NCBI RefSeq assembly: GCF_964355755.1
Contig: NC_092679.1
Coordinates: 12,445,432-12,509,431, forward strand
Length of the DNA: 64,000 nt
DNA from: Antedon mediterranea
Lineage: Eukaryota > Animalia > Echinodermata
Direction: 5' to 3'
Shown one piece after another: positions 1,044 through 63,184 of this stretch; positions within the stretch are counted from its first letter, which is position 1; the number at the start of each line of letters is the position of its first letter. A model generated the notes under the pieces. That model was not told the origin of the DNA. It saw nothing but the letters and a program-made list of their open reading frames with translations, and did not search any database. Both the position numbers and the translations under genes were made by a program.

Positions 1044-1089
1044 AGTAGTAGATAAGGTACTTCAGCCCAATGTTGACCTTGGTGTATTT

Positions 1090-1290
1090 TTATAATTAAT
1101 TAATTAGATTAATTTCCTGTTATTGTAATAATTAAATTATTCTTAATCTTAATTAATGAAGGTCATTCTTTCCTGGTTTCGTAATAATTAAAGTATTCTT
1201 AATTAATGAAGGTCGTTCTTTTCCTGGGTTCTTAATAATTAAATTATTCTTAATTAATGAAGGTCTTCTATAGGTATAATAAATTATTTT
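1090..1290. repeat. Subterminal ~55-bp tandem repeats within the Polinton left end
   Basis: There are 3-4 copies of TAATAATTAAATTATTCTTAATTAATGAAGGTC.TTCTTTCCTGG. Confidence 0.75.
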
Positions 1291-1620
1291 TCTGGCGCGT
1301 ATTTTTGATTTGTCCTTTCTCCCATCTCTCCATTTTTTCCCTTTGTTGTTGTTTAATTAAGGTGTTTCCTGGGTCCATGTTTTCCGTTTGGTCGAAGGCT
1401 AAATCTAATGGTCACTGTTGTGGGAAGGTCTTCCTAATTATTTAAGGGGTTGTTTGACCAATCTTAATAGCGGACACATTTCCTAAAGGAAGTTCTAAGT
1501 ACCTTTGTTTGTTTGTTTTTTAATTTAATTAGTGTCATGGAATGGTATAAAAACAACGCAAGTGTGGGTAATTCTTTATTCGCTTACTGAACCAAGACTT
1601 ATTACTGATTTTTTTTTACA

Positions 1621-4600
1621 ATGGCTCATTATGCATCATCATCATCATCTTCCGATTCTAACGATAGCTTGTTTATCGAATGCCAGAGAGCAGTTGAAGC
1701 TATCGTTAGTTTATCGCGGAATAATGTCGAAAATATCGATACCAACAATGTTGTCCCCGATATTGGACTACTAGAAGATTTCGTATTTAATGACCAGGAC
1801 CTTGATTTGGATGTTAGCCAGAGTGTTTCTGAAGCCGATAGCCTCTCACTTTCGGATATTTGCAATAATGCTATTGAGATAGTGCAGGAGCTATCGGCTA
1901 ATTTACGTATTGATCACGTAGAAGTAAGTGTTTGTTTATTTTATTTTTTACGTAATATTTATTTTACCGTGTATAATTCTTAAAAGTAGATTGTGTGTAA
2001 CCGAACGTGTGTTTACAGCGTTTTACGGTTTCTTTGCGTTTCTTTCTAATTTATTTATTTTTTTTTAATATTTTTTTTTTTACCGTGTATATCTCTCGTT
2101 TACGGTTTATATACGTTTTCCTTTCTAATTTATCTATTTATTTTTTTCTGTATAGTACGGTGTTGGTGCTCACACCAAATGTTTGAGTTTGAGAGGAAAT
2201 GTCGAGATTAATGATTCAGTGGAGTCTTCGATTATTGAGGTACAGTAACTATCGTTTTTTTCTCTTTACTACTGTTGTTGTTGTTGTTGTTGTTGTTGTT
2301 GTACCACGTCTTTTATTTCTTTTTCTTTACTGTTTTTCTCTGTTTGTTTTCAGCCTGCACCCATACAATATGGAAGGGGCGTTAATAGAAAGAGGCTCAG
2401 AATCGAAGACGGAGAAAAAGAAGAATTTGCGATATTGATACTATTGAAGACGAGGACCTTAATCTTGATGAGGTAGAGTTGAATCACTTCTGTAGAATCG
2501 TTCAATTAGCTGATAGGTTTAACCAACGTTTTAACGCGTCTATTAGCGATTTTTTAGTTAATTTTTTAAATATTGATTTAAGTTTAGAAGTGATTCTGTC
2601 CACACTGTATCGAATTTTTGAGCATGTCGTCGATAATCTCTGCATTAACGTGCATGTCGACAAAAAAGATGCAATCAAAATTACCAAATTATTGTCATTT
2701 CAAATAACAATTTAAATTCTGTCAATTTTAGCGGCGATTATAGAAAGAAGCAGATATATCTTTATCATCATTCTAATCATTACGATCTCATAACCACAAT
2801 GACAGGTTTTCTAAAAATTGATTATTTTTGCGATAGATGTCATAAGGGGTATAATCACAAATACCAACACAATTGTCAATTTACGTGCGTGCTGTGTAAG
2901 CACAATGACTGCCCCTCTTCTAATTCTTTTGAAAATAGAGAGAGTAGAATAGAGTGTAAAGAATGTAATAGATTTTTTAAGGATAAGCAATGTTTCACCA
3001 ATCATAAAAAATCTCCTGATTCTAAAAAAGTTTCAGTATGTGACAAAATTAAAAATTGTTCAACTTATAATAGGATCGTTCAAAAAGATCACAATTGTCA
3101 AAACCGTTTTTGTAGAATTTGTGGGACTTTCGTTTCATACGATCATCAATGCTACATGGAACCGGTTGTAGCCCCTACTGTAAGCATACTGAAAAAAAGT
3201 TTAAGAATCAGGAGGCCCGTAACAGAGCTGTCACTAAATATTTCTTTTTTGATTTAGAATGCACGCAAGATACAGGCGAACACAAACCAAATTTATACGT
3301 TCTTCAAAAAACTTGTCTTAATTGTATCGACGGTGCTAATGATTCCGCCGATTGTGACGTGTGTGGGGATAAAACAGTGGTTTTTCATGGGGGGTCTGCA
3401 TGCGAAGATTTCTGCAATTACGTATTCAAAGATTACAAATTTAACGAAAATATTACGTGTATCGCTCACAACTTCCAGGGTTATGATAGCTACTTCGTGC
3501 TCAACTACCTGTACGAAAACTCCATTGTACCGGATGTAATTGCTCGCGGTGGTAAACTTATTTCGATTAGGACTAAAGAAACGAACATTCGATTCATCGA
3601 TTCCCTTTCATTTCTGCCCATGCCTCTATCAAAATTGCCCAAAACTTTTGGCATCTCCGAACTTAAAAAAGGTTACTTTCCTCATTATTTCAATTCTTTA
3701 GAAAATCAAAATTACGTAGGTCCTTAACCCGATTCTTCAAATTATTCCCCCGATAAAATGACTACTTCAGGTCGAGAATCTTTCTTTAAATGGTACAACC
3801 AGAAAATTGAAAGTAATCAAGTATTTGATCTTAAAAAAGAACTCGTCGAGTATTGTATCAGCGATGTAGATATTCTCAGAAAGTGTTGTCTTACTTTTAG
3901 ACATCTTTTTTTGAAAGTAACTATATCGCCGAAAAACCCTCTACTCGGCGGTGTTGACCCCTTTTCAAATAATTTAATGACAATTGCCTCAGCGTGTAAC
4001 CACGTATTTTCTAGAAATTTTTTAAAACCATCCACCATCGCTCTATTTCCATCATCAGGGTATCTAACAACCGTTAACCATTCTCACTCTAGCATGGAAT
4101 GGCTGTGCTACGAGTCGCATAAAAGGGGGGGGGTCTTTATCCATCATGCCAGAAATGGAGGGGAAAAAATGTTTGGACCTTACTCTGTCGACGGCGCATG
4201 TTTAGAAAACAAAATAATTTTCGAATTTATGGGGTGTTTTTTCCACGGGTGCCAAGATTGTTATAGACCCGATTCCATTAATCCCTTCAATAACGAGACC
4301 ATGTTGGAATGCTTTGTCAAGACAAGCAAGAAAACACGGTTTCTGAAGGAACAATTTCCAGATTTCGAATACGTCGAAATTTGGGGGCACGAATGGAAAC
4401 GGATCAAACAATCGTTGGCCCCAAACATTAAATCTATCGTCTCCAAAGTTCCTTTAATTAGGCAAACTTTGAATCCAAGAGACGCGTTTTTCGGTGGGAG
4501 GACTAATGCCAGTTGTTTGTTCTATAAGGTAAAACCGGGTGAAGAAATTAATTACATAGATTATACTTCCTTGTATCCTTATGTAAATAAATACGGTACC

Positions 4601-5777
4601 TACCCCGTAGGGCATCCTGAAATCAATGATCGCAACGACATGTCCACAGATATCAACGATTATTTCGGCTTGATAAAGTGTACAATCGAAGCGCCTAAAA
4701 AATTATTCCGTCCGGTCTTACCTTATAGATCAAACGGTAAATTAATGTTTGCTCTCTGTAGAACATGCGCCGATTCTCAACAACAAACCGCTTGCAATCA
4801 TTCCGGTACAGATAGAGAATTTACAGGTTCTTGGGCAACGATCGAAGTCGCTAAAGCCGTGGAAGTTGGGTACAAGATACGTAAAGTTCACGTAGTATGG
4901 CACTTTAAAAATAAAAGCGCGTACTCTGCAGATTCTCCCTCGTCCGGTCTATTTGCCTCTTACATTAACACCTTTTTAAAATTGAAACAAGAAGCTTCGG
5001 GTTGGCCTGAATGGTGTAAAACGCCCGAAGATAAACAAAAATACATTTCGGACTATCGAACCGTAGAAGGTATCGACTTGAATCATGACGACATTGCGTA
5101 CAATCCTGGGCTTCGATCTCTGGCCAAATTAATGCTAAATAGTTTTTGGGGTAAATTTGGCCAGCGTGAAAATCTCACGAGAATTAAATATACGCAAGAT
5201 CCTAACGAGGTTTACGATATTTTATCGAACCCTGGGATAACCGTTCATGACATAAATTTTGTTAATGATGATTTGGCGGAGGTAAAATACGAGGACGAGG
5301 AACAATTTGTTGCAGTTAACCGAAAGGTTAACGTTGTCATTGGCGCATTTACCTGTATTACGATACTGACAGCGTAATCTTCGTATCAAAACCCGGGGAT
5401 TGGGACCCTCCCCTGGGCGACTATTTGGGTCAGTTAACGAGGTCGATCCTAAAGATGGTAAATTCATCGAGTCCTTCGTTTCTGGGGGGCTTAAGAACTA
5501 CGCCTATAAATTGGATACGGGGAAGACCGTTTGTAAAGTTAAGGGTTTTACCCTTAACTTTACAAACGCTCAGAAAATTAATTTTGACACCGTCTCCAAT
5601 ATGGTAAGGGGTGTTGGTCCCGATACAATTAAGACGGTTGAGAAGAATCGCATAACGCGCAAGCCAAAAACACGCAAGATAGTCAACGAAACATCGCCTA
5701 AAGACTATCGAATCGTGTACGACAAAAGAATTATTATCGAAAATTATCGTACAGTTCCTTACGGGTATGTTTGGTGA
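1621..5777 (+). pseudogene. Polinton protein-primed family B DNA polymerase (pPolB), probably with two 5' introns; frameshifted, with internal deletions
   Basis: Motifs: Zn-finger Cys clusters (2799-3160); ExoI YFFFDLEC; ExoII AHNFQGYDSYF; KGYFPHYFN; ExoIII YCISDVDIL; VSR-like insert VDG..FEFMGCFFHGC; FFGGRTN; DYTSLYP; KLMLNSFWGKFGQ; YYDTDS at 5356-5373 in a shifted frame; KNYAY; KVKGFTL; YDKR..TVPYGY. Lesions: stop at 3725-3727, frameshifts near 2430, 3200 and 5440, deletions near 2660 and 5355. Putative 5' exons are 1621-1923, 2156-2239 and 2354 onward. Confidence 0.92.
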
Positions 5778-5989
5778 ATCACGGCAATAAATTTCTTTTT
5801 AAAAATGTAAACATACTTTGTTATAGATAATTATTTGTTACTCTTTATACATTCTTTACCGTACTCTCTCTTTTTTTATAGTTTGAACAAAATATATTTG
5901 TAGTTTTAATGTAAATATTTTTATACCTGTTTTAATATAAATAATTTTTATACCCGTTTTTTAAAGTCGAATTTTTGCGGGTTAAGTAA

Positions 5990-6730
5990 ATATATTTTTA
6001 AATATTTTTCCGCTTGATTCTTATGTCGATACCGTTTCTCTTTTTGTAGATTAAGTAAATATATTTCGTAATTTTAATTTAAATATTTTTCCACTTGAAT
6101 TCTTATGTCGATACCGTTTCTCTTTTTGTAGCTTATTAGTGAATATTGTTATAACTGTTTTAATGTTAATAAATTTTATACTTATAAAATCGATTTTTGT
6201 AGATTAAGCAATATTTTTGTAATTTTAATTTTAATATTTTTCCACTTGAATTCTTATGTCGATACTGTTTCTCCTTTTTGTAGATTAAGTAAATATATAT
6301 TTTCCACTTGAATTTCTTATGTCGATACCGTTTCTCTTTTTGTAGCTTATTAGTGAATATTGTTATAACTGTTTTAATGTTAATAAATTTTATACTTATA
6401 AAATCGATTTTTGTAGATTAAGCAATATTTTTGTAATTTTAATTTTAATATTTTTCCACTTGAATTCTTATGTCGATACTGTTTCTCCTTTTTGTAGATT
6501 AAGTAAATATATATTTTCCACTTGAATTTCTTATGTCGATACCGTTTCTCTTTTTGTAGCTTATTAGTGAATATTGTTATAACTGTTTTAATGTTAATAA
6601 ATTTTATACTTATAAAATCGATTTTTGTAGATTAAGCAATATTTTTGTAATTTTAATTTTAATATTTTTCCACTTGAATTCTTATGTCGATACCGTTTCT
6701 CATTTTGCAGATTAAGCAAATATATTTTTG
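5990..6730. repeat. AT-rich tandem array, 214-bp higher-order unit built from 151-bp and 63-bp subunits
   Basis: GCTTATTAGTGAATATT recurs at 6131, 6345 and 6559. The core TTCTTATGTCGATAC(C/T)GTTTCTC occurs 7 times. Confidence 0.9.
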
Positions 6731-6952
6731 TAAAGTTATTTTGTTTTATGCGAAATTTGAAATAAATGTAATCACTGTACTTGTTTATAATATATATACT
6801 TGTCTGTTTCTTAATGTTGACGTGGAAGATGACGATAACAACAACAACAACAAAAGACGTACGTAATGGTGACTGTAATTTTATTTTATCGTATCCAATA
6901 TAAATATTGTAATCTCTCCTCTTTCTTGTTTAAATTTTTTATTTATCCGACG

Positions 6953-7064
6953 TCACCAAACAATTCGTTCCAGCAAGGCCATATAAATGCCTACTAGCCA
7001 GTCGATCAAGTACCATGCTTTGTTAATTCCTAACTTCGTACTACATAGAACAAGTTCCTATAAA

Positions 7065-7095
<31 letters not shown>

Positions 7096-7518
7096 AGATA
7101 ATATAAAAACAATTAATTACCAAAAATGATAATAAATGAAAAAAAAAAGAAATTTACTTACCAAATCACTGTCGTTACGAAGTTCTAATGAGGAAAACTT
7201 TTCCTTCACAAATTCGCAGGAAACGTGTAAAACGTTTTCTAATTCTAAAACAGTATCACACTGCATGGCAACACTTGCGCATACTGAAATTCCTGTCACG
7301 AGTCTACGGACGTGTATGTTTTGATCAATCATCATTTGCTTCAACACACTATCCAACGTCTCCGAAGTAATTTCGTTACACAAGGCAATCAATCCATACT
7401 TTTTCTCCACCTCGTTACAAAGGCGAATAGTACTATGGAGGATTGGGGAGTCCCACACAACTTTCCCCGTTAATTTATATTCAATGTACGATAAAGTTAG
7501 TTTTTCCAAATCTGCCAT
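6953..7518 (-). CDS. Bcl-2-like protein carried by the Polinton (2 exons: 7518-7162, 7057-6953; 153 aa)
   Basis: MADLEKLTLSYIEYKL is BH4-like, STIRLCNEVEKKY is BH3-like, and VLKQMMIDQNIHVRRLVTGISVCASVA is BH1-like. A phase-0 GTAAGT...TTTTTATAG intron of 104 nt joins to ELVLCSTKLGINKAWYLIDWLVGIYMALLERIVW*, a hydrophobic tail. Confidence 0.65.
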
Positions 7519-7742
7519 TTCTCTCTCTATTAGTACACAGACGTTAATGACGTTGGAATTGATTTTTAGGATTTGATATACAATCATTTGTTAACGTAAT
7601 TATCTTTATTAATCTCCTATTGGTTTATATTCTCGTCTCCCATCCCTTTCATTTTTTCTATATTGGGATGATGTGGATAAGGAACCCTTCACCTCGTTAT
7701 AAAGTACCGATATACAAAGGCGATGAATCATTAAAACTGAAG

Positions 7743-8372
7743 ATGACGTGTGTACTGGTAACCCCCTTCACCGCCGTAATTAGTGGACCGACCTCATCGG
7801 GAAAATCATATTTCGTGAAGCAATTATTGGAAAGCCATTATTTCGATAAGCCGTTCGATGACATCACGTGGTGTTATGGGGAATACCAGCCCCTTTTCAC
7901 CGAACTGAGCGGATCTATTAACAACATTCAATTTATATAAGGGATAATTCGATAGAAACGATGGAACCGTCAAAAAACCATTTAGTAATCATTGATGATT
8001 TAATGACCGAGTGTAGTCGCGATAAAAGAGTGGTAAATATGTTTACAAAGGGATCGCATCATAGAAACATTTCGGTTAAATTCATTATGCAAAACTTTTT
8101 CTACGGTTCTAAAGAAATCCGTACCATCACTTTAAACGCTCACTATATAATACTGTTTAAAAACCCTCGGGATAAATCTCAAATAGCTAACCTATCCAAA
8201 CAAAATGTATCCCGGAAGGACGATTTCTACGGGAGGCTTTTGAAGACGCTACCCGTGTACCGTACGGCTTTCTTTTAATCGATCTAAAAGCAAATACTCC
8301 GGAGGAAATGTGAGAGTTAGAAGTAACATATTTTCAAAAAACAATCACTTTGTTTACGTACCGAGAATATAA
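7743..8372 (+). pseudogene. Polinton genome-packaging ATPase (FtsK/HerA, A32-like)
   Basis: Walker A ISGPTSSGKS, WCYGEYQ, Walker B LVIIDDLM, FTKGSHHRNISV, QNFF and LNAHYIILFKNPRD are present. There is a stop at 7938-7940 plus frameshifts. Confidence 0.92.
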
Positions 8373-8421
8373 AACGCGACCTGTACCGTTCCATTAAATC
8401 ATTTACCCGTTTACGAACACC

Positions 8422-8508
8422 ATGTCGAAACGTATCAAAAAGAACGCTGAAACTATTCTTTTCCTAGCCCACTGTTCACCGCCTCAAAGAAAACTAATCC
8501 TGGAAAAC
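8422..8508 (+). pseudogene. N-terminus of the small Polinton-type ORF that follows the ATPase
   Basis: MSKRIKKNAETILFLAHCSPPQRKLILEN, then broken by an insertion. Its position and basic character fit the small ORF commonly found after the ATPase. Confidence 0.5.
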
Positions 8509-8537
8509 TATAACTATATTTTAAAAGCTGTTATCTT

Positions 8538-9256
8538 GCGGCCGCCACTTAATAATTAGTACATGTCCCGTCACGTGACATGTACGTGCATTGGATCGGA
8601 GGCGATGTTGCATATGGAACGCCATCGCTGCCTCCGGCAGCAAACTTTAATTCTATTCGGCTCTTTTACCATTCGGCGCATTTCTATTCGGCCCATTTAC
8701 CATTACGTTCGGCTCTTTCAGCATTCGACTCTTTTTTATTCGGCCCATTTACCATACGTTCGGCTCTTTTTGATTTTTTTATACGGCGCAATTAAATTCT
8801 GACCTTTTACATGGGGTCAAATGGAAGAAATCAACGGCTGGAAATGAGTCTATGAAAAGTTTACAAAACATATAGATGCAGCATGTAGAGTGTTTGGTTG
8901 GTTGAATTAAATGAATTTGAAGGCTATTTCAATATGACTAATCATTTTATTGACATGATTAATGTGTTAGAGAACTTGCAATTGTCCCACCTTATTGACT
9001 ATTTTGAAAGAGAAAAGGTTTGATTTATGGCCTAGGCTAGCTAGACCTAGTCTAGTGTCTGTCTTTTAACAATAATAATTTACCCTTTCTCTCTCAAAAT
9101 TTGTTAAAAAATGAATTAATTTTAGGTTATTCAACACATCTTTAATCGTAAATATGGTAAATGGGCCGAATAGAAATGCGCCGAATGCTAAAAGAGCCGA
9201 TCGTAATGGTTGTAAAAGAGCCCAATAGAATTTAAAAGTAATTAAGTGGCGGCCGC
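8538..9256. mobile_element. Non-autonomous TIR-like insertion with internally repetitive inverted arms
   Basis: A perfect 16-bp inverted repeat GCGGCCGCCACTTAAT (8538-8553) / ATTAAGTGGCGGCCGC (9241-9256), plus inverted ATTCGGC-repeat blocks at ~8645-8770 and ~9150-9235. No clear TSD. Confidence 0.65.
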
Positions 9257-9506
9257 GAAGAATTGAAATTGAGTTGAAAATCTAATGTTGAAATCATAAA
9301 TTTTGATAAAAAACTCTTTATAATATCTTCCTAAGATAGAAATATGGAAAAATAGCGTCAATGCCAAAACTAATGTTATCAAATCTACGTTTCGCGGTAC
9401 ATCTGAGATAGATAAGGTAGGTAGGCCTATCCAAGGCGGAGATTTGTACCGAAGTTTTTGCATTGCGCTCGCCTATGTCAGAATTAACCATAATTTATAT
9501 TATAGA
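9257..9506 (-). repeat. Dispersed repeat with Helitron-like 5' end, copy 1
   Basis: It is highly similar in reverse complement to 61932-62175 and begins A|TCTATAATATAAA on the minus strand. Confidence 0.7.
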
Positions 9507-9654
9507 TTCTATATCGAAAGAAATACTACAAAGTATGCCCTCATCGTTGAAATCCAAAACAAAAACATTACTAGACCGGATAGACCGTTACCGGAAGATG
9601 GGCGTAATTGATTGGTCAAGATACGGCGAATTACTAATCGAAGGACAAGCGGTA

Positions 9655-9943
9655 AAGATAAAGATAAATTTATTGAATGAACGCTTTTGTATCAGCGGCA
9701 CACGTTTATAAGACGGTGCGTTCATTTACAAGGCAATGTAAAAACAAAAAGAAAAGTATCAAAAACATTTAAGTCTTAACTAAGAAGCGAATTATACAAG
9801 TAAAATTAAATTAGTAAAAACAAGGTAATCTTACATATCGAACAATACTTAACCTATATGATGGAGTTAATGTTATTATCTATTTATTATCAGTATTATT
9901 AATATTTTCAAGTTTTAAGCGAATATATTATCATTATTATCAC

Positions 9944-10232: not shown

Positions 10233-13081
10233 TATTGAGTTAGATAAATGGTAAAATAATGTTAGTAGATAATATGGTGGGCGGTAAATATTTATATATT
10301 ATATATTAAGTGTAGTCTTTCTATGTCTCCATGCAGCAGTTAAGTATTGTTTACAGTGATAGTCTACAATTTCACCGATTCTCTCAAATGGAAATTCTAA
10401 ATAAAGGTCATCAAGTAAAATATGATGTTGGTATTCGATTGTACCACTTCTAAAATTCTCCCAGAATGTATCATAACCACAATACAATAAATCCATTTTT
10501 AGTAAGTTAAAATGTGTTTCTCTTACATTTTTAAGGTTTGAACATTCAAGTAGAAAATGGTCTGTAGTTTCAATTAACTGATTGTTGCATAGCTTGCAAA
10601 AACCAGTCTCATTTTCTGACCATGTATTTTTTCTACCTTCTAAATCAAGAGAGTTAGACCTCGCTTTAAACTTTAAACTAATGGAATCAAAATTCACCAT
10701 ATCAAACATGTATGTCTCTGCTTTAGGTTCATGTTTATATTTCAAATATTCGGAGAGGGTTGACTTTGTTTTTGCACCTTCTAACCATTCCTTGATATTT
10801 TCTAGAGAGTTGGCATGTGTAAAACTCTTGAACCATTGACTTTCCGGATTTAAATTAAACTTATTTCCTAAATCAAATTTACATAATAAATCTTTGATAT
10901 GGTTAATCCACTTCCATTTCACCTTATCTTCTACATCCATTATAGATCTACATAGTAGTTTTTGCCACCTTTGGTCGTCCATATTTTTAATTCTGTTAAA
11001 ATAGGACATCCTAAATTTATTTTGGATGGTGTAGAGTGTCTCCCATCCTAGGTCACCAATCAATGCCGCTTTCGCGACGTTTCTTGGTGCCTTCAAAATA
11101 ATTCTAGCCATTTGGTATTGTAAATTTTCTAACTTATTTAGTGAACCTTTAGAGTTACATAACCATATTGCAGAGGCGTAATTAATTGTTGGTAATCCTA
11201 TCGTTCTCCATAAAAGATCACCATAGTATACCCTATTGAAATCATTCTGATTGTTTATAATAGAGGTAATATAGGCTATTATCCTATTTCCCTTTTTGAT
11301 TACTTCATTGATATTGTCAGAATCTGTATATGAACGTGATATTATTACACCAAGATATTTATACCTTTCTATTTCTGTGATATAATGATTACCAAGGCTC
11401 CATGTTCTATGTGGATTTACTCTTTGCCCTGTGACCAGCACATTTGATTTGTCAAAATTAAACTCTAATTTCCATGCTTGTGAATAATCACTTGCTACTT
11501 TAAGTAGTTTCACAAGTTCAGACTCATTGTCACCGATTAAAACCACGTCATCAGCAAAAAATAGTGCACCTATTTGTGTGCCATAGATTTGAACACCTAG
11601 TTTATGACTTTTGATTAGATTATTTAGTTCGTTAATGTAAATAGAAAAAAGAACTGGTGACAATGAACAGCCTTGTTTCACTCCTTCATTAATGCTAAAC
11701 TTATCAGATTCTATGTCATTGAACAAAACTTTGCATTTAACATCATCGTATATATTTCTTAGTAAGTTAAGGAGTTTACCACGGATACCAATTCTTTTGG
11801 CAGCCGTAATTAACCCTTGTCGCCAGACTGAATCAAAGGCTTTTTTAAAGTCCAAAAAGGCCAGAAATGTTTTTTTACCCTCAGCACGCCTTGTGGCGAT
11901 AATGCTTTTCAAGACAAAAATGTGGTCTTCACATCTTCTGTCTGTCCGAAAGCCCCCTTGGACTTCACCAAGGATGCCATTTTCTTCTAAAAATTGAGAA
12001 ATATTATATGCAATAATTCGATTAAAGATTTTTGAAACACATGAATTAAGTGTGATACCTCGATAATTATTGAGATCACGTCGATCTCCTTTTTTAAATA
12101 TTGGGATAATTATCCCTTCATTCCATTCATTTGGTATAGTTTCAGTTTGTATAATTCTGGTAAACAATTTTTGGAGTGATAATGTGATTAGATTACCTCC
12201 GTTTTTTAACATTTCGTTTGTTATAGAGTCAATACCTGGACTTTTGTTATTTTTTGCCTTTGATATAGCATAAGCGACATCATCAAATGAAATATTTATA
12301 TTATCTAAAATATGATCACAATGAATATTATTACTGTTACTATTATTATCGTGGGAAGAGTGGAGAATACCGTTACTGTTAGTTGTATTAAATTTTGCAA
12401 TATTGCCAAAGTGTAATTTTAGCGAATTTTTCATATCGTCGTGGTCTGAAGAATATCTTGAAGTTCCTGGTATTAGGATAGAATCAACATTTTGTTTCTG
12501 TCGTTTGCCTTTGAGTTCATTCCAAAATTCCTTAGATTGAGGCCCTCCTTTATCCATAATTTTTGAGCAATTTGATATTTTCTTTTGCATTATTTTGCGT
12601 TTAAAAAGTGATTTACAGAATTTCCGCTTCTCTTGGTATGTTTCCCATAGAGAATTACAATAATTGATATCAAACTCAATATTATGTTTATTCTTTGAAT
12701 ATAATCTATGTGCTCGACACGATTGTCTACGTTGATTTATAGCATATTTTGTTTCTTTATCAAACCATATCTTTTTGTTTGATCTCGTTTTCTTATAGCC
12801 TATTGTATTCTCTGCAACTAGCGTAACTTTGTTTTTCCACTCTACCCAAGCATCGTTCGCATCTAAACGACTAGGGTCCCAATCTTTAAAGTCGTAGTTA
12901 ATTGAACTACTAAAATCACTCCAATCTTTAGGGATATTCCAATGTTTTGTGTTAGTTTTTGTCACCTTACTGGTTTTACAAATATTATTCTCTATTAGTG
13001 TGATTACAAGCATGTTATGATCACTTCCATAATTATACAGTCCAAATTCATCAATAAACAATTCTTTTGTTACTTCATCGG
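9655..13081 (-). mobile_element. 5'-truncated non-LTR retrotransposon (RTE/RTEX-like)
   Basis: Long RT ORF, AT-rich 3' UTR, and AATAAA followed by a (TATCTT)n tail at the left junction. Confidence 0.9.
10299..13081 (-). CDS. LINE ORF2: end of APE endonuclease, reverse transcriptase, C-terminal CCHC finger
   Basis: GSDH, KSPGID, NYRGITL, QGGFR, FLDFKKAFDSV, GVKQGCSLSP, FADD, YKYLG and CKLC..ETTDHFLLEC occur in an uninterrupted ORF of ~930 aa. The first ~11 codons of the listed ORF come from Polinton sequence. Confidence 0.93.
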
Positions 13082-13582
13082 AAGGAAGTAATTTACTCGA
13101 TTTGACAAAAGACATAATTCAAGAAAAGAAAGGATTTGAACCTATAGACTGGAGAGAGTTTATAACGGTATTGGCGAAATTGAACACCCCAGAAAGTTTG
13201 ATTGGAAATCCTACGAGACGTCGTACCTTACAAAGAATTAAATCGAGCGGAACACCATCTCTCGCATTACCTAAACGAAAGAAGGAGGATGATTATGACT
13301 TCGACGATGATGATGATGATGATGAAAAACTTACCTTTCGAGCAACCGCTAGGAGGCGATCAACTAGACAGCCTAAACCTAAATGGTTAAATTTAAAAAA
13401 AAACATTAACCTTTATGTACTATAATGAGGAAAGGAATTGAATAAAAAAAGTAATAAACTCGAACTTGTTGTTGTTGTAGTCACTCGATAAATAAATTAC
13501 AAACGTACAAAAAACATATCCATTTTAAAAGCAATTTTTATTTACTACGCATTCAACAACATTTTAACAAATTGTACTTTAA

Positions 13583-16500
13583 TCAAATAACGGAGTCTGT
13601 GTGGACTGCAAGGAACAATGGACGTCTTCAGCATGTGATGTACTCTCTTGTCACAACGTTGACGGATGCTCTGGTAAGATCCTCAGAATCTTGTATTGTT
13701 AAACAGCACCCGGTTCTCGGTACTGTATCTAGGTCCTGGTTTCTCCAGTATCAAAACCTTCCCTGGTCCCACAAATCATACCAGATTGTCATTGCTGTAT
13801 CTCAATATACAACAATATTTGCCAAACATCGTAATACAGCATCTTTTCGTCAGTATCATACAAAATAACCTAACTCTTACTTACCTTACACAATTGTGTA
13901 CTTTTAATTGTTTGTCTGCTTTTCTAATCATAACAACATTAGACAGCAAAACATTTAGGCCGTTTTTCCTCAGCTAAAAAAAAGAAATTATCGGTTCACA
14001 ACGCAACAGTTTGTCTTCAGGTCAAGCTTAAAAATGATCACATTCATCTGATAATTATCCAATTTGAATGAGATAATTATCGGTTTATTTTCTCGAATGG
14101 AATCTGTTTAACACCGTTTGCACATGCAGTTTATCGGTTAATTATCGGTTCATTATTATTGGTTCATTTTTTTATTCGAAAACGGCCGTATATATAACAA
14201 CACAAAATAATAGTTACATTGTTACATTTTTAAATGTTCCTTAATTAACTGCCTATAATAAATATCTTTATTATAATAATTTATTAACAGGGAATGGTGT
14301 ATGTGTCAGTTTTGATGTTTGTATGTGTAATAGCGGATGGACTGGCGAATCTTGTGCTTTGCCAGATTGTTCCAAACTGAACGACTGCAGTAACCAGGGG
14401 GAATGTATTGGACCAAATGAGTGTAGTTGTTATGTGGGGTATCAGGGAAATAACTGCACCGAATTAATTGACTGTATCGAATTAAACAACTGCAGTGGGA
14501 ACGGAGTTTGTATTGAGGACAGCTCTTTGCGAGTAAGTTTAGCAATGGTTAGAGTCCAGAGTGCGGGATGCATGGGAAAGCGGAATGAAGTAATGTAGTC
14601 TCTTAATGATGTTAGCTCAACTCTGCACCCAACCTTCCTCTTTCCTTCAATCAAACTCTGAATCCCAGAGTAGACGTAAATATAATAAATATATAATAAA
14701 GTAATATAAAAAGAATCTAATCTTTGGTCGAGCCAACTAGAGAAAATTTTGATGCGTACAACTTGCGGTAACTTAAACATCACAAAGTTACAGTTGGTTA
14801 ACTCGTAGTAATTGGTTGATAGTCTGTACATTGAATGTACAGGTGTCCAGTGGAATTTAAATTGAAATATTGTTTCATGTTTTCGTTTTAAGGTGTTTTA
14901 GTGGATATTCAGGTGTGAATTGCTCTGTGTTTTCATGTGAACTGATCAATAATTGTTTTGGACATGGGATTTGTATTGAATTCAACCTTTGTCAATGTGA
15001 TATCAATTATACTGGCATTAATTGCTCTCTTCCTTCTTGTGAACATCTTGCTTTTTGTTCTGGTAAGTTGTTGTTTATGTGTACAGAAAGAATATGAGAT
15101 TTTGGGTTTTCAGAGCATTTTGAACAATAACTTATTTTAATTTAATATTTATTGAAGGTAATGGTGCATGTATATCGCATGACAAATGTAAGTGCTACTC
15201 TTCTTGGTCAGGTGACAAATGCGACATTGCATTTTGTAGTGATGACTGCAATGGACGTGGAGATTGTGTTGATGAAGAAACGTGTGAATGTTATATAGGT
15301 TATGAAGGTGATCGATGTCAAGAAGTTCAACAAGAAAATCTAAACCAACCTGTATTTGATGACGATGAGTTGAATGTTACGTTTTTTGAAAATCTTCCTA
15401 TTGGAACTTTTCTGTTAGCTGTGCATGCGCGGGATAACGATACTCGAAAGAACGGAATTGTGTCTTATCGATTACTTCAGTCGGAGTACTCAAACCTTTT
15501 CTTGATAGATCAACAAAATGGAAATTTACTTACTGCTTGGGATTTTGATTATGAAACTCAAATCTCGAATATCTCACTTACAATAATTGCTGAAGATAAT
15601 GGGTTCCCGCCGATGAGTGCATATGCTAATGTGAATCTAACGCTACTTGATCAAAATGATAACTGCCCTGTATTTCTAGATGATTATCCAGATATAACTA
15701 TTCCTGTAAACATCAGTAATGCAACTGTTATTAGTAACATTTCAGTCGTTGACGTGGATAGTGACGAAAATGGCTATGTTACGTTATCAATGAAGGTCGA
15801 AGGTGATGTGTCAAATTCTATTTTTACGTTATTGGACACTGGTGAAATATTGGTCACTGGTGATATTCAGTCAGGGCGATATGTAATCAAATTAGTTGCA
15901 TCAGACAATGCCCTTCAGCCGTGCAAAACTAGTCAAGAATTTGCTGTTTACGTTCCATTTGCTCCAAATTATTATTCAACGACACCGGTGTACACAACAG
16001 AAGATTCCAAAACAACTACCCTTGAAGATAATATTATCACAACACGTTATGTAACAACTGAAAAAAAGCGTGAAATTACAACATCACAAGGAATTACAGT
16101 TAAAGATGTTGTGACAACACGTGACTTAACAACTGAGCAACAGCATAAAATTAAAACTTTGAAAGGAACTACAGGTAAAGACGATCTCATAACACTTGAC
16201 GTAACTGAAAAGCAGCATAACATTATATCTACACAGGGACCTGCGCTTAATGACATCACAACCTCACACTCAACAACTGCTGATACTAGTCCTAGTAGGC
16301 CTACTTCACAAAGTCATCTAACCAAAATTCAGCAAGAGCATACTTCCAGAGACGTGACAACCGATACGACATCACCAAATCAAGACGCTAAATCAACCGC
16401 TGAAAACATTCGTTCGACACCAGATCTGACAGAGAAAATTAAAGGTAAGATTGTTCGAATTGTCGTACTGTACAGTATATTACATTTTATTAATAACAAC

Positions 16501-18112
16501 ATTTATTCAACATCAACAGACAGTCCTAAGAATAAAATATAAAACATAGACGGACCTTACAATTACAATAAATGACAATTTTGACAGGCGAGAAAAAAAA
16601 AATGAAATTCCTAAAAAAAAATAATAGCAATCTTATCCGCTTATAGGAGTTGCATGTGTTTCAAATCGGAGTTGGTCGGGTTATAAAGCAATATGAATAT
16701 GTTGTGTTTTTTTCAGGTGACTGCACAACTGATGCTGATTGCAACAATGGCGCCAACTGCTACATCGGTGTATGTGCTTGTGTTTGCCCGTATAGTGGCA
16801 CAACATGTGATCAAGGTATAATAATAAATTGCTTTTAAAGTCACTGATCCAAACTGATAAAAGCGCTTCATATTAGATTCGTATTTATAATAATGTAACA
16901 ACCGTTTCAAAGTTTATCAATATCACAATTATAATTTTCCTTATTAATATATAATATGCGATGACCAGCATCATAAATTATATATTTTTATGCTCATCCA
17001 TATTAAACCAAATTCTTAATTATCATATGCTACTAATCGTTTCAATATTCTAATATTATACATTAGTTGGACAGTGTTTTGAGACGTCTATACGGGTAAT
17101 TTACCTCCGATCCGTATTTGGTGATACTGAAGCCCAGTTTTCCTCTGAATTAGAAGATCCTTCTTCTGAGATGTTTAAAGATACATACACAATGGCTAAG
17201 GATGCTGTAAGTATCAGTGAGTCAAGGAATAGTGATTAAGGTAGATGCGTCCAAATCCATAGCCCGCTTTTTTCAAATTCATATCTCCTCCGGAGTTTTC
17301 CAGATTGTTACAATGTTTTTTTTCTTTTTCACAAAGATGGAAACTGTTGCTGCAAACTCTGATGTTGTAAAAGAGATCAAAATAATTAGATTTAGACAGG
17401 GAAGTTTATTTATGGATATGAGCTTAGTAGCTGTAGATGGACAATCTGAACAACAGATTAAGGACGAGTTCACATGGGCGCTTGTGGCTACAGATAATGG
17501 AAATATTAAGTTTGATCTTAAAACCATACAGGTTAAAGAAAGTATGTTTGAATTTGGTCTTTGTGTAATTTTCTTCTTTCTTTCTTGATGTATTACTCGA
17601 TTATTGCAGTTTTATTTTTGGCTTGGAATATTCTACTGTAGAGTGGAAGGGTTAGAGTGTTACATACATAATGTAAATTTGTTCGATGTTTCTTGTGTGT
17701 GTTACTGTAAAGTTTGCACAACAGGTTTTGGGTTTGTCGTACGGCCTTCTTCTTTATTTTATGATGGGAACAATAAAGATTGATATGCCTTTTTGGTTTA
17801 AGTGTCTATGTAAGAAGTAATAAGTTAACTCCTTTATCATAAATGTATTTTCATTATCGAAATACCATGTTTTTTTACACAGTAAGTAAAGAAGAAGAAG
17901 AATCAAATGTTTGGATTATTATCTTTATCGTGGCTTCCATTACATTTTTGGGTATTTTCATAATTTGCATAGCTGTTTGCACTATGCTCATTTTGAAAAT
18001 GCAAGCCAGAAAAAAGCAGTTGCAAGATATGGCCATATCAAGACAGGGTTTCATCTACAGAGGAGAATACAAAGTGGAAAGTGATTATCTAAGAAAGCAG
18101 TGTAAAAAATAG
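13583..18112 (+). CDS. Single-pass membrane protein: tenascin-type EGF repeats, 2 cadherin domains, Thr-rich stalk, EGF, SEA-like domain, TM (5'-incomplete, possibly a pseudogene)
   Basis: Approximate exons: 13583-13673, 14291-14532, 14893-15062, 15158-16444, 16717-16815, 17067-17206, 17337-17541, 17882-18112. Cadherin motifs are ENLPIGT, ARDND, FDYE and DQNDNCPVF. The SEA-like segment is IIRFRQGSL and the TM is WIIIFIVASITFLGIFIICIAVC. Confidence 0.75.
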
Positions 18113-22600: not shown

Positions 22601-25600
22601 TACCACACTTTATGCCTGTTTACCTAGAGGTTTAATTTTACTTAGGATGTCTCCAGGCCAAAGGAGGGGTTCTACCTTATTTTTCACAGTTTATTTAAAA
22701 GGGGCAAACTTTCATCAAATGTCTACTTTATGAATTTTTAACAGGAATACATGTATACACCACTGGCTGACCTACAGCAAGGAATGATTGCAAATGTGTA
22801 TGGTGTTGTATCCTATTTCAAGCCACCATTTAGGGCTAGAGGAACAGGTAATGTCAGCATTTTCAATTTACTTAACATAGTGTGAAACTAACTTTACTGT
22901 ATTTTGGAGAAAACTTACAAATTAAGTTTGACATTTTTTTGCAAACACTTTAATTTGTACAGTATGTTTATTTCTGCACATTTCTAAAAGGTCTGGATTT
23001 TGTTCTCCATCCAGAGACCGTGATTTAATTTTCATCTCATGGTTTGAGACATCAAGTATCATTTCACTATAATTTATGCATAATTTTTTCATATTCAACT
23101 AATCTTGCACGATTTTTATCTCCACTTGTGGCATTTTATGTCCATATTTGCATAGGTAAATTCCGTAACTATGTACGTCACATATGTATTACAAAGCCTG
23201 TGATATGTTACATATGATTTGGCCAGTGTAATGTATGTAACATGATCAAATTACTGAAATCCATAACTTTAAAATCTTCATATTTATGTTTATTTATATG
23301 AAGGGCTCACTAACTGAACCTATCTTTGATTTATTTTCTAATGTTACCGATACTTTGATTACTTTTAGATTATTGTTTGTCAATGAGAGTAATTGACAAA
23401 TCACTTAGTAACGACGGCTTATCATGCACACTGTTTATGAGAGACAAAGAGTCCCTACCACATGTTCTTTCCATTGGTGATGTAGTACGTATGCATCGAT
23501 TAAAGGTATTTGTATATTTATTCAACATTTTTGCAGTAAAATTGTCAATCTTGGGCTCTAAATACATTTAACTCTATAAATAAATGTACTGTTAAAGTGA
23601 AGTTGTAGCTACTGTAGTTGTAGCTATGAGTCGGTTAAAACAGTGTATCTGTAATCCTTATCCTTTATGGCAAGTGTTCGAGGCTCTCTCGCTCTGGTTC
23701 TGGTGGTAGAATGATTTTTCTTGGCTAATAACATACAAAATATGTGTGTGCAAGAACATGCTAGTTTTTTTAGATTATATGGAGTTACCCAGTGTACAGC
23801 CACTGTCGGGAACAGGTTGTGCTGTAGTTGGCAGCGCCGACATGAGAGGAGAAGAAAAGGTGTAACATCAAAGTCCACAGCTTATAACTGATAAATAAAT
23901 AATAATAATAATAATAATAAGATTTTTATAGCGCACATACCATTCCAGAGTGCTCAAGGCGCATTAAAAAATAAAAAATAAATAAATCATACAAATTCCT
24001 GACAAATAAAATACAATTTCTTTGGAGGGTCCCCATCCGTTGTCGTTCTGTCGCGGTCCCGAACCCCTACCTAGGTGACCAAACAAAGGAGCAGGATACA
24101 CATTTGCCTTGCCACAGACGACCGGGTGCTCAGAGACAACAACCAAGACAGAGGCACCCCAAAGATAATGCTGGCCAGGAAAAGGTATACAAAACAATTC
24201 TAAGTCTAAACAACTTTAAGAAACCTCATGATTTCCATATGCCTTAATGAATAAATGTGTTTTTAATAATTTTTTAAAAGTATCAACAGTTTTGCAAAAT
24301 CTTATAGAGCTCGGTAGAGCATTCCACAGACGAGGAGCAGTAACGGAGAATGCTCTGTCACCCCATGAGTGGTGAGACTTAGGCTGATGTAGAAGCAGCG
24401 AGTCACTAGAGCGCAGATTACGTCCGGGAACATACAGCCTAAGCATGTCAGAAATATATTCAGGAGCCATGCCATTTATAGACTTAAAAACAAAGAGTAA
24501 TATTTTTAAAACAATGCGGTACCTAACAGGGAGCCAATGCAATATTTCCAAAGTATTTGATATGTGTCCCTATCTTGGTAATTTTTTAACAACTCGTGCC
24601 GCTGTATTTTGAATCAGTTGGAGCCTGTGGAGTTGTTTTTGTGGTAGCCCGTATAGCAAAGAGTTTCCCATATCTAGTCATGAAGTGACAAAAGCATGAA
24701 CAAGTTGTTTAGCTGCTGTCTCATTTATAAACTTACGAATCCTTCGAATGTTTCGCAAGTGAAAAGACGACACAGAAATAGTTTTTGAGATATGAGAAAT
24801 CATAGTCATACCCACATCCATTTCAACCCCAAGATTTCTAACCTGCCTAGCCGGGTCAATTTGGGTTTCACCAATGTGAATAAAGCTTGGTGGCAGTTTT
24901 TCCAACTGCTGTTTTGATCCAAAGAGAACAAATTCTGTTTTTTCATCATTTAATTTAAGAAAGTTGTTTTTCATCCAGACACGCAATTCATAGATACAAT
25001 GTTGGAGCAATTCCAAAGAAATGTCACTGTGTTTCATAGTAGTAGGTTTAAAAGAAATATAAATCTGAGTATCATCAGCATAAACATGATAGCACAGATC
25101 ATATTTACTTATGATATCCCGTATTGGGTGTAAATAAATAGTAAACCATTGCGGCCCAAGAACAGATCCTTGTGGTACCGAAAAGTTTAGAAAAGAAGCT
25201 TTTGAAATAGCATTACCAATACATACGTGTTGAGGTCGTTTTTCCAAATATGACCGACACCAATCAAGTGCATTTCCTTCAATACCAATATAAGTACTGA
25301 GTCTATTTAGCAACACAGAATGATCAACCGTATCAAATGCTGCACTTAAATCTAATAATACTAGAGCAGTTAGCTTTCCATCATCCATCCCACATAGGAT
25401 GTCATTATTTACACGAAGTAATGCCGTTTCAGTACTGTGATGCGCTTTGTAGGCAGATTGATACGGATCAAGTAGGCCATGTTTTTGTACATGCGACAAA
25501 ATCCGTTTAGAAACAACCTTCTCAATTATTTTTCCTAAAAAACTAAGATTCGAGATAGGTCTGTAGTTTTTCAGAATCTCGGGATCTAGACCTGTTTTTT

Positions 25601-28600
25601 TCAATGTGGGTCGAACATGGGTGACTTTTAGAGACTCTGGGAAAGAACCACTTTCAAGAGACTTATTAACAATATGTGTGATTAATGGAATAAATGCAGA
25701 AGTACATTTCTTAATCAGTGAAGTTGGTACCGGGTCAAGTGCACACGATTTAGAGGAAGAATTTTTGACAATTTTTAAAATTTCCTCATCACTTGCAGGT
25801 TCGAACTGAGAAAACCGTATAGACCTAGTTAAACCATAAGATATATTACATTTATCAGAAGCAGTTATAACTTCGCCAGTATTTTCATTTTCTAGTGAAT
25901 CACGAATTGATTTAATTTTATTTACAAAAAACACAGAGAATCTTTCAGCAAGAGCTTCATCGGAGACAGACGAAGGAAGGACCGATGACTTGGAGTGATG
26001 TAAAAGTTTATTTACTATATTGAAAAGTTTCTTTTGATCACCTGTGCAGTCACTAACCAGACTAGAGTAATACCGCGTCTTGGCCTTTTCAATCAGTCCA
26101 TTTACAACGCATCTTTGAACACAGTATTCCTGTCTATCCTTAGGAAGCTTTGATTTCATCCATTTACGTTCAAGTTGACGACGTACTTTCCTTTCAGATC
26201 GAATTTCATCGGTATACCACGGTTTAGCTTCCTTTTGCCTAATTGTTTTGTTCTGAACTGGCGCATGTAAATCAAGTACAGCTCTGAGATCAGAATAGCT
26301 TTCTACACTGTCTTCAAGAATTACACTTACATCGGTTATATTAGACACACAGGCTTTAATGTTATTTGTGAATTTCTCAATATCAACTGATCCCTGGCTT
26401 CTTATTTCAAATCCTACATGCTTTGATAACAAGCTCTATATAAGTATATATTATTATGAATTACACTTTGTATTTTAAAGATTCAGATGTACAAAGATGC
26501 GTTACAGGCTGTTAAGCATCCAGGGTTTGCCTCACTAGTGTTCTCAGGTGAAAAGGGAACTGGTTATAAACCTAGGTCATCCACTCCATTGTACACGATG
26601 ACAAAAGATGATGAAAAGAAGGTAAGATAAGGGTGCATGTAATGAAACATTTAGGGTTTAAAGACTTGATTGAATTTGGATGTACATGAGTGTTTCTATA
26701 GGCATGATTGGCCATGCCAATAGTAATTTTTTTTTTACTATTGGCACAGCTTGTTTTCTTTCTGCAAGGTTGGAAATAATGCGTGTATTTGATCATGCCA
26801 GAAGACAATTAGACAAAATTACATGCGGTTAACCATACCAATAGTATTTTTATTTGATTACAAAAAAAAATTATGACAGTTTGGATACAAGGCCATATAA
26901 CGCCATAGCTGTTAAGGCTAATAAAGCGGCCTCAACCTTAAATAATCACAAAGACAAACATGTACACAAGATTCTCTACACAAAGTCTTATAAGTCTTGT
27001 TCTGTCATGAGAAAAAAATTCTGGCACCTGACAGGAGTTCAACCCAGGACCCTGGGATTGGTAGCCGAGCATCTAAACCACTAAGCTACAGCTCTACTTA
27101 AAGATGTATTGTCCTCCAAAAACATGAAAAATAGAGATTAATTAAATCAGACTTTGAATATGTTATTTTGTAGTTTTAATAAAGTTAATCACTTCCATAG
27201 AAAAAAAAACTAAAAAAAAAAATGTTTTCACTTATAAAATGACAAAATAAATGGTTATATTCAACTAAAAATCCATTGGCTGGCAGCCAATTTGACCATT
27301 TTTTGCTTTAAATTACATTTTTTCAGGTAAATACATTTTTTTATCATCCAATTTTTGGTAAATGTGGATAACTATTATGTTACATTGAAATGGAATATTA
27401 AAAAAAAATGTTTTAAGAATTTTTTCAGGGGGACAATACATCTTTAATATAGTGCCTTACACAACCATATAATATTGTTTTAAGCAAATGGGAGTACTAG
27501 ATTTATGTATGTTTTCAATTATAAGCTTCTTCATCAGGGTCATGAATGTCCATGTTATTTATGTAACATTAATTGCAGATAACCTCTATTACATGAAATA
27601 TTAACTCAAAATTTACGACAAAAAAAATCAATTAAACCACATTTTTTTAATTGGTTGGCACCTAAAGCTGAAATTTAAAAAAATAAACTTGACCAAGTAC
27701 AGTTGACATCTTTGTAATTTTATCATTTCAGGTGGATGAGTTACGAAAATGGAAGAATGTAGGGGAAGAGGGGAGGTGTCTATCGTCCATAAAAGGCAGT
27801 GAATATCTTGATATCAGTGTTCAAATAGTGGCTAAAGTGGCAATACCAAGTATCAATTGCATTGCTCTGAAAGTGTGGGATGGTTCATTATTTAACAGGT
27901 GATTCTTCTTCTGAAATAACTGGCATCATGACGACAAAGTAGGCATTAATTTTCTTATTAGTGTAAATAATAATATTTACTTTGCACTGATGAAGGGCTA
28001 GTGTTGTCCGAAAGCTCTGCAAATGTTCTGGCTATTTTACTTTCATTTTGATTTAGCTTTTTGTTTATTTTATTTTGTAGTATCTTTATTGAGATTCAGC
28101 CAGCCACAGCATTGTAATTTTTTCAGTAATTTGACTTTGGATTTAATATTGTAATTGTATATTTTGATACGCAAGTTAATTACAAAGCTTGTATGTAACT
28201 TGTAAATTAAGATCATTCAAAATTTATATGTTGTAGTTCTCTTCGTTGGGTAGACACAGATGAACATGATTTCACATGGGATACTGATTTAGCAGAAAAG
28301 GCTAAAGGCTATGTTGTTGATGTTTGGGTGTATGATGACCATGTGGAGTCTGTATCAAATGTTAAGGTGAGTTCGCATGAAATATGAATTGTAGAAAGGT
28401 TAATGGTTATGTCACGTTTGGGTGTATGATGACCATGTGGAGACTGTATCAAATGTTAAGGTGAGTTCACATGAAATATGAATTGTAAAAAGGTTCAAAT
28501 TTTAAGGTGAGTTCACATAGAGACAGAATAGTAGAAAGGTTTGTCACTGTTTGAATATAGGATGTCCATTTGAAGTCTGTATCAAATCTTAAGGCAAGTT

Positions 28601-38409: not shown

Positions 38410-38605
38410 ACAGATTTCCTCATCTTTATCGTTTCAAATTAATTAATTAAATTTCAGTATATCACCGGGCGGTTTAGAATTAAGGTTCTTTGCCTGATGT
38501 GTTTATATATAAACAAATCAGGCGAAGAACATTAATTCTAAACCGCCCGATGATATACTGAAATTTAATTAATTAATTTGAAACGATAAAGATGAGGAAA
38601 TCTGT
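38410..38605. repeat. 196-bp near-perfect palindrome (fold-back, MITE-like)
   Basis: ACAGATTTCCTCATCTTTATCGTTTCAAATT... pairs with ...AATTTGAAACGATAAAGATGAGGAAATCTGT, centred on TTTATATATAAA. Confidence 0.92.
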
Positions 38606-61931: not shown

Positions 61932-63184
61932 TCTATATATAAATTATGGTTAATTCTGAAATAGGCGAGCACAATGCAAAAACTTCGGTACAAATCTCCG
62001 CCTTGGATACCTACCTTATCTATCCGAGATGTACCGCGAAACGTAGATTTGATAACATTAGTGTTTACGCCGACGCTATTGTTCCATATTTTTATCTTAG
62101 GAAGATATTATAAAGAGTTTTTTAACAACATTTATGATTTCAACATTAGATTTTCGTCTCAATTTCAATTCTTCCTGGTCAAAGTAATTTCCGGGTTTAA
62201 GATAAGTTCACCTTACAACAACCTGGTTTCAAATATTTTCTCTCTTTTAAACACAAGGGAGCAGTTAAAATAATAGATTTGACCCTAAAGGTGACTGGAA
62301 ACAGGCACTTTCCATCAATCAATACAGTGTCCCTTTGGAAGACGAAAAAAAAATCAGATAATAGGAGTGCAGCTTAAGTTGGCCATTAGTCATAGCCATT
62401 TCAGTTTTTTGTTTATTTTAAAACATACCATGCGTGTGTGAAGGTACAGTAGTTAAATTATACTGCAAATTAATAAAGATCAAATTAAATATACGTCATA
62501 AAGAATCAGAATATATTGTGGGGAATAGTATTATAAAATTACATAGGGAGATTTGATGATAAGACATTTTTCGAATGAAATCCCGATAGCTGAGTTTTAT
62601 TGAGGAAGCTTGCAGAAATAACTGTAGGCTATCTTCCTGTGTCCCGTTAGGACCGAGATGTCTGCCCATGTTGCAAGCCGTAATGTCTTCTTTCTTGGGC
62701 CCACTCTGTTACGGCAGTTTCAAAAGATGATTAAATTAAATAATGTATTAATAATTATTAGGATGGTATTCATTTGAATAAACGCCTCTCCAATAAAACA
62801 TCACTTTGAATAATACCCCCCCCCCCCCCCACATTTGTTATTCTTTTTTACCACTTTTCATATCTACTGTATTAGAGGATTTCATTTGATTATAAATGTT
62901 ACCATATTATTAAAACTAAAAAATTTAACATATATCCCTCGAATAAGCACCTCCCTCAAATGACCTCCGCCTCCCCAAAGGGCCCTACCAAACAATAAAA
63001 ACTATACTTTAAAATGTTATTAATCATCTAAAACACTGTGAAACAAAGTAGTTTAGTTTTACGAATGTCAAGCATGTTCAATAATGGTAACCGACAGAAA
63101 ACGTATAAGGAGAACATTATCATTCCGAGAACCATCGTCTACACTTCCTAGAGGGGGAGCGAGCGAAGCGAGCTCACCCTCTAG
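61932..63184 (+). mobile_element. Helitron-like non-autonomous element or remnants (5' end at 61932, 3' hairpin plus CTAG at 63184)
   Basis: The A|TCTATATATAAA start is shared with the 9257-9506 copy over ~245 bp. A GAGGGGGAGC...GCTCACCCTC hairpin ends in CTAG|T. Whether both ends belong to one element is unproven. Confidence 0.45.

Follow-up and report, generated by a model that had tools for sequence, protein, structure and literature searches.

A Bcl-2-like gene with a predicted intron at the BH2 boundary in a decayed Polinton of Antedon mediterranea

The locus described here lies in a stretch of 64,000 nucleotides of Antedon mediterranea DNA (contig NC_092679.1, positions 12,445,432 to 12,509,431 of the forward strand), which is called the window below. 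Near the left end of the window, reading of the open frames gave a two-exon Bcl-2-like gene on the minus strand (7518..6953) with a predicted product of 119 + 34 = 153 aa. The gene is antisense and located between the protein-primed PolB (pPolB) and the packaging-ATPase-like gene of a truncated, decayed Polinton. The following features were found in the element.

1044..1500, plus strand: probable left terminus with an AGTAGT end and 51-nt repeats (right boundary approximate)
1621..1923, plus strand: possible 5' pPolB exon, with a GTAAGT donor at 1924
2389..5777, plus strand: protein-primed PolB (PF03175, E 4.4e-13 and 4.7e-27), broken in at least six places
6083..6729, no strand: AT-rich tandem array of a 214-nt unit in 3 copies, in the gap where pPolB and the Bcl-2-like gene converge with their 3' ends
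6953..7057, minus strand: exon 2 of the Bcl-2-like gene, 34 codons and a stop, encoding a short linker followed by a C-terminal helix of moderate hydrophobicity (40% GC)
7058..7161, minus strand: predicted intron of 104 nt, GT-AG, phase 0, T-rich (10% GC), at the Bcl-2 BH2 exon boundary
7162..7518, minus strand: exon 1 of the same gene, with 119 codons from the ATG at 7518, covering predicted helices 1-6 and a divergent BH1 and ending at the BH2 position
7743..8372, plus strand: packaging-ATPase-like gene, divergent in orientation from the Bcl-2-like gene and broken in at least three places
8422..9710, plus strand: what is left of one or two more small ORFs, taken to belong to the Polinton, interrupted by an insertion with inverted ends (about 8540-9256) and by a dispersed repeat

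The element runs from about 1044 and fades near 9.8 kb. (AGT)2, as seen at its left end, has been reported as the end motif of Mavericks (PMC8097293). No second terminus, the partner of the AGTAGT end at 1044, was found in the window, and matches to a target-site duplication pattern were at chance level (4 found against 2.4 expected). No integrase, protease or capsid was recognised among the 12 ORFs of at least 80 aa scanned in 1-25 kb, or by eye among ORFs of at least 110 aa in 25-64 kb. The sequence-only reading had placed the Bcl-2-like gene between pPolB and the ATPase, and this location was right: pPolB is recognised by PF03175 at E 4.7e-27, and the ATPase-like frame shows a visible Walker A, its two pieces giving matches below the cut-off (Adeno_IVa2, E 0.0019; Pox_A32, E 0.0084). 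The remnant ORFs at 8422..9710 gave no Pfam match, and we take them to be of Polinton origin by their resemblance. Sequencing reads cover this stretch at an element-like depth up to about 8500. As the element around it is dead, the copy in the window may itself be inactive.

Several other features were observed in and around the element. A 203-aa ORF at 433-1044 ends exactly at the left terminus of the Polinton and has no Pfam match; we take it to resemble the start of a Gypsy-type gag. Since this gag-like ORF stops at the terminus, the Polinton was probably inserted into a retrotransposon. A non-coding insertion at 8540-9256, whose inverted ends are of the GCGGCCGCCACTTAAT type and which contains 15/52-nt repeats, interrupts the small ORF following the ATPase, and its read depth is far above that of the Polinton, as for an abundant MITE. 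A 250-nt dispersed repeat is present at 9257-9507 and, inverted and 91% alike, at 61931-62174. The remaining part of the window contains RVT_1 frames of non-LTR retrotransposons on the minus strand at 10299-13115 (an open frame of 938 aa) and 24678-26435, exons on the plus strand at 14323-18112 from a host gene for a membrane protein that has EGF repeats (EGF matches in Pfam; by eye, also a stretch resembling cadherin, a region rich in Thr and a segment that is probably transmembrane), and a near-perfect palindrome of 196 nt at 38410-38605 (96% complementary, no spacer).

On the minus strand, the donor GTAAGT of the Bcl-2-like gene is located at 7161 and the acceptor TAG at 7058. The intron is in phase 0 because the lengths of both exons are divisible by three. 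The coordinates, donor, acceptor, phase and 153 codons given by the sequence-only reading, as well as the C-terminal residues that it quoted, are all present in the sequence. GTAAGT was found only once on the minus strand across 1044-9900, and among the 13 downstream AGs scanned, the pyrimidine tract was richest (0.70) before the first one. The GC content is 39% in exon 1, 10% in the intron and 40% in exon 2, and AATAAA appears about 10 nt past the stop, with copies at 6943 and 6885. These splice signals are better than chance expectation. The start at 7518 is favoured over a longer start at ATG 7587, because 1-2 nt indels at 7519 and 7562 in sister copies speak against the longer start and the crinoid proteins described below begin at the same place as the shorter one. 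pPolB seems to be spliced in its 5' part as well: in the 1621-2360 region, a 120-aa acidic ORF ends at a GTAAGT (1924), beyond which there are stretches rich in T and, near 2352, a TTTTCAG resembling an acceptor.

The homology of the gene was difficult to see from exon 1 alone. Its match to PF00452 was E 0.013 (16.4 bits, cut-off 31.4) with a query that excludes BH2 and the tail, nothing was obtained at E<=10 from a PDB sequence search, and none of five candidates was accepted in a word-index homologue search. An exhaustive search of 1.84 billion representatives gave only two matches at E<=0.001. The best match was XP_033096042.1 (P0003) of the crinoid Anneissia japonica, whose Bcl-2 domain scores 44.8 bits against the same cut-off of 31.4 and which carries NWGR and GGW, and the second was a 73-aa fragment (P0004). 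In RefSeq, XP_033096042.1 is an 'uncharacterized protein'; the model is a chimera of a Bcl-2 domain and pPolB fragments, and these pieces resemble the pPolB of the window (42% over 67 aa and 50% over 72 aa). Four further A. japonica models, annotated as 'bcl-2-related protein A1-like', belong to the same family, giving a set of five (XP_033096041.1, XP_033096042.1, XP_033096711.1, XP_033123993.1 and XP_033121109.1). One of these A1-like models, with the accession preceding that of P0003 and a contig equal to its own in length, is probably its neighbour.

Exon 1 and this set of crinoid proteins could be aligned across 105 columns, with 30% identity (hhalign 97.1%, E 5e-11). The best conserved part was YIEYK..WDSP in the N-terminal helix 1-2 region, which is common to the window protein and the A1-like models. 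When the family profile was compared with PDB sequences, Bcl-2 structures were matched, A1/Bfl-1 being the best at E 3.8e-9; this closeness is a best score, not orthology. The Atlas lead for another protein, P0005, was Bcl-2-like 15/BID (0.89). Because the crinoid relatives have BH motifs and one of them is fused to pPolB, the window gene is a divergent member of a Polinton-borne Bcl-2 family of at least two species. At least the fused A. japonica copy is Polinton cargo despite its annotation as a host gene. The members are different in several points, as the A. japonica models keep NW(G/S)R and GGW and have no hydrophobic tail, and the fused model implies a Bcl-2 gene upstream of pPolB on the same strand, unlike that of the window.

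A search with the family profile returned only the two crinoid clusters among 1518 candidates. No related loci were found in viral contigs searched with exon 1, the family alignment, P0005 and pPolB, or in metagenome contigs searched with the family alignment. The pPolB query gave five metagenome contigs of 1.1-2.4 kb, which are too short for gene order.

It is reported that in pro-survival Bcl-2 genes, from sponge to mouse, the first coding exon ends at the BH2 Trp and the tail is encoded on the next exon, while the genes of Bax, Bak and Bok, which promote apoptosis, have 4-6 exons (PMC8998228). The last residue of exon 1 in the window gene corresponds to one past the GGW Trp of the crinoid proteins P0005 and P0008. 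The same boundary is ambiguous on P0003 in an ungapped placement, as its BH2 region was not placed without gaps, and the start of exon 2 is unlike the crinoid residues following GGW. Conditional on the predicted intron, the window gene has the pro-survival type of layout, with the boundary at the BH2 Trp and the tail on a separate exon. At random, an intron would be expected in phase 0 and within one codon of the BH2 site in about 0.7% of cases, a figure to be read with the fact that the site was noticed post hoc. The position at this conserved boundary therefore speaks for the intron, and it suggests that a gene of the pro-survival type was captured as DNA. This agreed with the earlier proposal of a captured gene, and it is likely, as we infer from the layout, that the gene was taken as DNA from a host pro-survival Bcl-2 gene with its intron included.

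Two structural models, both of low confidence, were made of exon 1 without exon 2. Model 1, from the single sequence, had six helices and a pLDDT of 59.8. All 49 rows listed for it by Foldseek against the PDB were chains of the Bcl-2 family, at E 0.049-0.13 and with none at E<=0.001, and the top two rows in the viral library were an F1L homologue (E 0.063) and the E1B small T (E 0.070). In VIA, the first 23 of the 50 listed rows for model 1 were Bcl-2 folds with Z from 8.3 to 5.9 (best row: Z 8.3, rmsd 3.4, 100 aligned), against 5.8 for the best unrelated fold; such Z values are common for helical models, and the weight rests on the uniform identity of the rows. Model 2, built from an alignment of seven sequences, was poorer (pLDDT 56.7). 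Of its 45 listed Foldseek rows, 42 were Bcl-2 folds but weak (E>=0.41, prob <=0.35), and no Bcl-2 row was among the 50 listed by VIA. Atlas placed exon 1 nearest to phage-integrase SAM domains, but the features in common were few (87-107 of 256) and the result was uninformative. The fold match that had been proposed as a check was thus obtained with the first model but hardly with the second. The models favour a Bcl-2 fold for exon 1, and do not prove it by themselves. Together with the crinoid relatives, the fold search of model 1 upheld the Bcl-2-like identity assigned by the sequence-only reading.

We consider, with a probability of about 0.6, that this is a gene of a Polinton family which is spliced by the host and whose product restrains Bax/Bak-type killers on the membrane during replication of the element. 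A Polinton family would have captured a small host pro-survival Bcl-2 gene as DNA and retained its intron, and the host machinery would splice the two-exon transcript into the protein of 153 aa. The product would associate with a membrane, where it may bind the host killers of the Bax/Bak type and delay cell death while the element replicates. As BH1 Asn-Trp and BH2 GGW were lost and the BH1 Arg was kept, its action may be nearer to the motif-poor poxviral vBcl-2 proteins than to cellular Bcl-2.

The NWGR motif of BH1 is absent: where the crinoid proteins have INW(G/S)RI, the window protein has IHVRRL, so that the flanking Ile and the Arg are kept and Asn-Trp is lost. The BH1 was rightly called divergent, but a part of this divergence seems, from the sister copies, to be private to the window copy: at one BH1 codon, all listed contigs in four runs differ from the window and are nearer to the family motif. 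The stretch aligned with BH2 contains neither Trp nor Gly-Gly, in line with the earlier remark that no clear GGW is seen. The tail is hydrophobic only to a moderate degree, with a best 17-residue Kyte-Doolittle mean of 1.57, Asp, Glu and Arg inside and a hydrophobic moment of 0.2-0.4; one sister variant, read by hand, has an additional charged residue there. By these values the membrane tail of the sequence-only reading, a C-terminal hydrophobic helix on its own predicted exon, is a marginal membrane helix, and it may equally well be amphipathic and membrane-bound as be a true tail anchor.

The loss of both BH1 Asn-Trp and BH2 GGW, with helices 1-2 as the best conserved region, would also suit a spliced Bcl-2-fold cargo that has given up BH3 binding and acts on another host pathway, for example autophagy or signalling in innate immunity, in the manner of vaccinia A52, B14 and A49. 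Some viral proteins with the Bcl-2 fold are known to inhibit NF-kB rather than apoptosis (PMC2494871), and a further precedent is given in PMC4358236. A BH3-like L-x-x-x-G-D core was looked for in exon 1 and not found, and A52 was the top Foldseek row for model 2, weakly (E 0.41). However, the BH1 Arg is retained, the crinoid members keep their motifs, the sister copies are nearer to the canonical BH1 than the window copy, and a hydrophobic C-terminal helix on its own exon suits the membrane-targeted pro-survival proteins. Viral members of the family may be without BH motifs (PMC7022251), and since poxviral vBcl-2 proteins without recognisable BH motifs bind BH3 peptides (PMC11209288), the motif loss is compatible with BH3 binding. 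We therefore regard an action on another pathway as unlikely, though it is the strongest competitor of the anti-apoptotic reading.

Sister variants of the gene were obtained as contigs, spanning the whole element, from five sequencing runs of one organism in two studies. The gene-level comparison covered four of the five runs and skipped the repeat at 7054-7103; among its listed rows there was no joint across the intron, a result that bears neither way on splicing or expression. The seven listed indel rows fall at four places, all outside the exons, and several variants have open exons; these differ at up to about 8% of bases. Forty substitutions were listed (25 more were unlisted), 34 of the 40 in exon 1, where none makes a stop. 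Of these 34 differences, 16 were synonymous, where a share of 0.21-0.26 would be expected (p 0.0005-0.008), a value calculated over sites that come from different variants, were filtered by support and are not independent. In a single variant 10 of 26 were synonymous, a weak signal (omega about 0.39, p 0.03-0.12). The results provide moderate evidence that the Bcl-2-like gene is under purifying selection.

It had been stated that this is the only uninterrupted gene of the element, with the caveat that its shortness could make this a matter of chance. The statement is true of the visible frames, but the caveat also holds. At least nine breaks (six and three) were counted by eye in about 4.0 kb of pPolB and ATPase, and a gene of 462 nt would escape all breaks at this rate with a probability of about 0.35, so that the intact frame alone says little. 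This leaves room for a captured passenger or decaying relic of no use to the element, with a frame open by chance and motifs lost by drift, and it may be noted that 16 of the 26 listed changes in the single variant are non-synonymous. Against this, there is the synonymous excess over the 34 listed sites, no listed exon indel or stop is found in variants as different as these, the splice and polyadenylation signals are intact, and the family persists in the Polintons of a second species. A useless passenger is thus rather improbable, more so than a cargo acting on another pathway. The least probable proposal, and to us a quite implausible one, is that there is no intron, the product coming from the unspliced frame, which runs 14 codons beyond 7162 and ends, T-rich and hydrophobic, at 7117, with exon 2 as a chance frame. 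The unspliced frame is indeed open to 7117, and no homology to exon 2 is seen in the crinoid models. Against this, sister insertions of 1, 2 and 3 nt at 7138, inside the predicted intron, fall within the extension, and the GC content steps down and up again. The donor matches the consensus perfectly and is unique, an in-phase frame of 34 codons opens again after the first AG and is followed by AATAAA, and the boundary lies at the conserved intron site of the family.

Starrett et al. observed Bcl2 and IAP homologues in adintoviruses (2021, PMC8502044), and three 'Bcl2' labels are found in the Beta-PolB panel of Suppl. Fig. S2 of that report. Bcl-2 cargo in Polintons/adintoviruses is consequently a kind already published, as the sequence-only reading had suspected. 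In both cases a Bcl-2-like accessory gene accompanies pPolB and a packaging ATPase, in the window an ATPase-like gene, inside a Polinton of an animal; the window gene is downstream of and antisense to pPolB, and the accessible text of PMC8502044 makes no mention of introns or function. In the literature covered, which for PMC8502044 comprises text passages and the Suppl. Fig. S2 labels, no intron-bearing Bcl-2 gene in a Polinton and no link of the crinoid 'A1-like' models to Polintons were found. A BCL2 domain is mentioned for planarian LTR retrotransposons (PMC6431247), and the accessible part of PMC11131425 does not mention Bcl.

Among cellular genes, Bcl-2, Bcl-xL, A1/Bfl-1 and Mcl-1 resemble the predicted layout of the window gene in their two coding exons split at BH2 with the tail on the second (PMC8998228). 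The window gene differs from these pro-survival genes in having neither BH1 Asn-Trp nor BH2 GGW, in its weaker tail and in its location in a mobile element. As a short cargo with eroded BH motifs and a probable Bcl-2 fold, it resembles poxvirus F1L, DPV022 and M11L and adenovirus E1B-19K. The genes of these motif-poor viral proteins are not known to contain introns. The motif-poor viral Bcl-2 proteins have been functionally tested (PMC11209288), whereas the window gene is known from its sequence, and no sequence relation between them was shown.

A wider proposal can be made tentatively, and we hold it to be possible, but somewhat doubtful. An animal Polinton lineage may have taken a host pro-survival Bcl-2 gene as DNA with its BH2 intron and carried it between species. 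In the branch of the window gene, purifying selection may have gone along with the loss of both BH1 Asn-Trp and BH2 GGW, so that the protein came to resemble, by convergence, the poxviral vBcl-2 proteins that have no motifs; several crinoid genes annotated as host 'Bcl-2A1-like' would then be Polinton cargo. If true, one mobile family would contain viral Bcl-2 proteins in steps from the canonical to the motif-less form.

The finding also has a meaning for the biology of the Polintons themselves. A retained BH2 intron would mark the route of capture as DNA and not a retro-copy, and it contrasts with the genes of intact vertebrate Mavericks, which are reported to be intronless (PMC8097293). For annotation, it gives a warning that some 'Bcl-2A1-like' genes of invertebrates are mobile cargo. 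A selected anti-death gene would be easier to explain for a virus-like replicator than for a plain transposon, and it would therefore add to the case for an infectious or lytic phase of animal Polintons.
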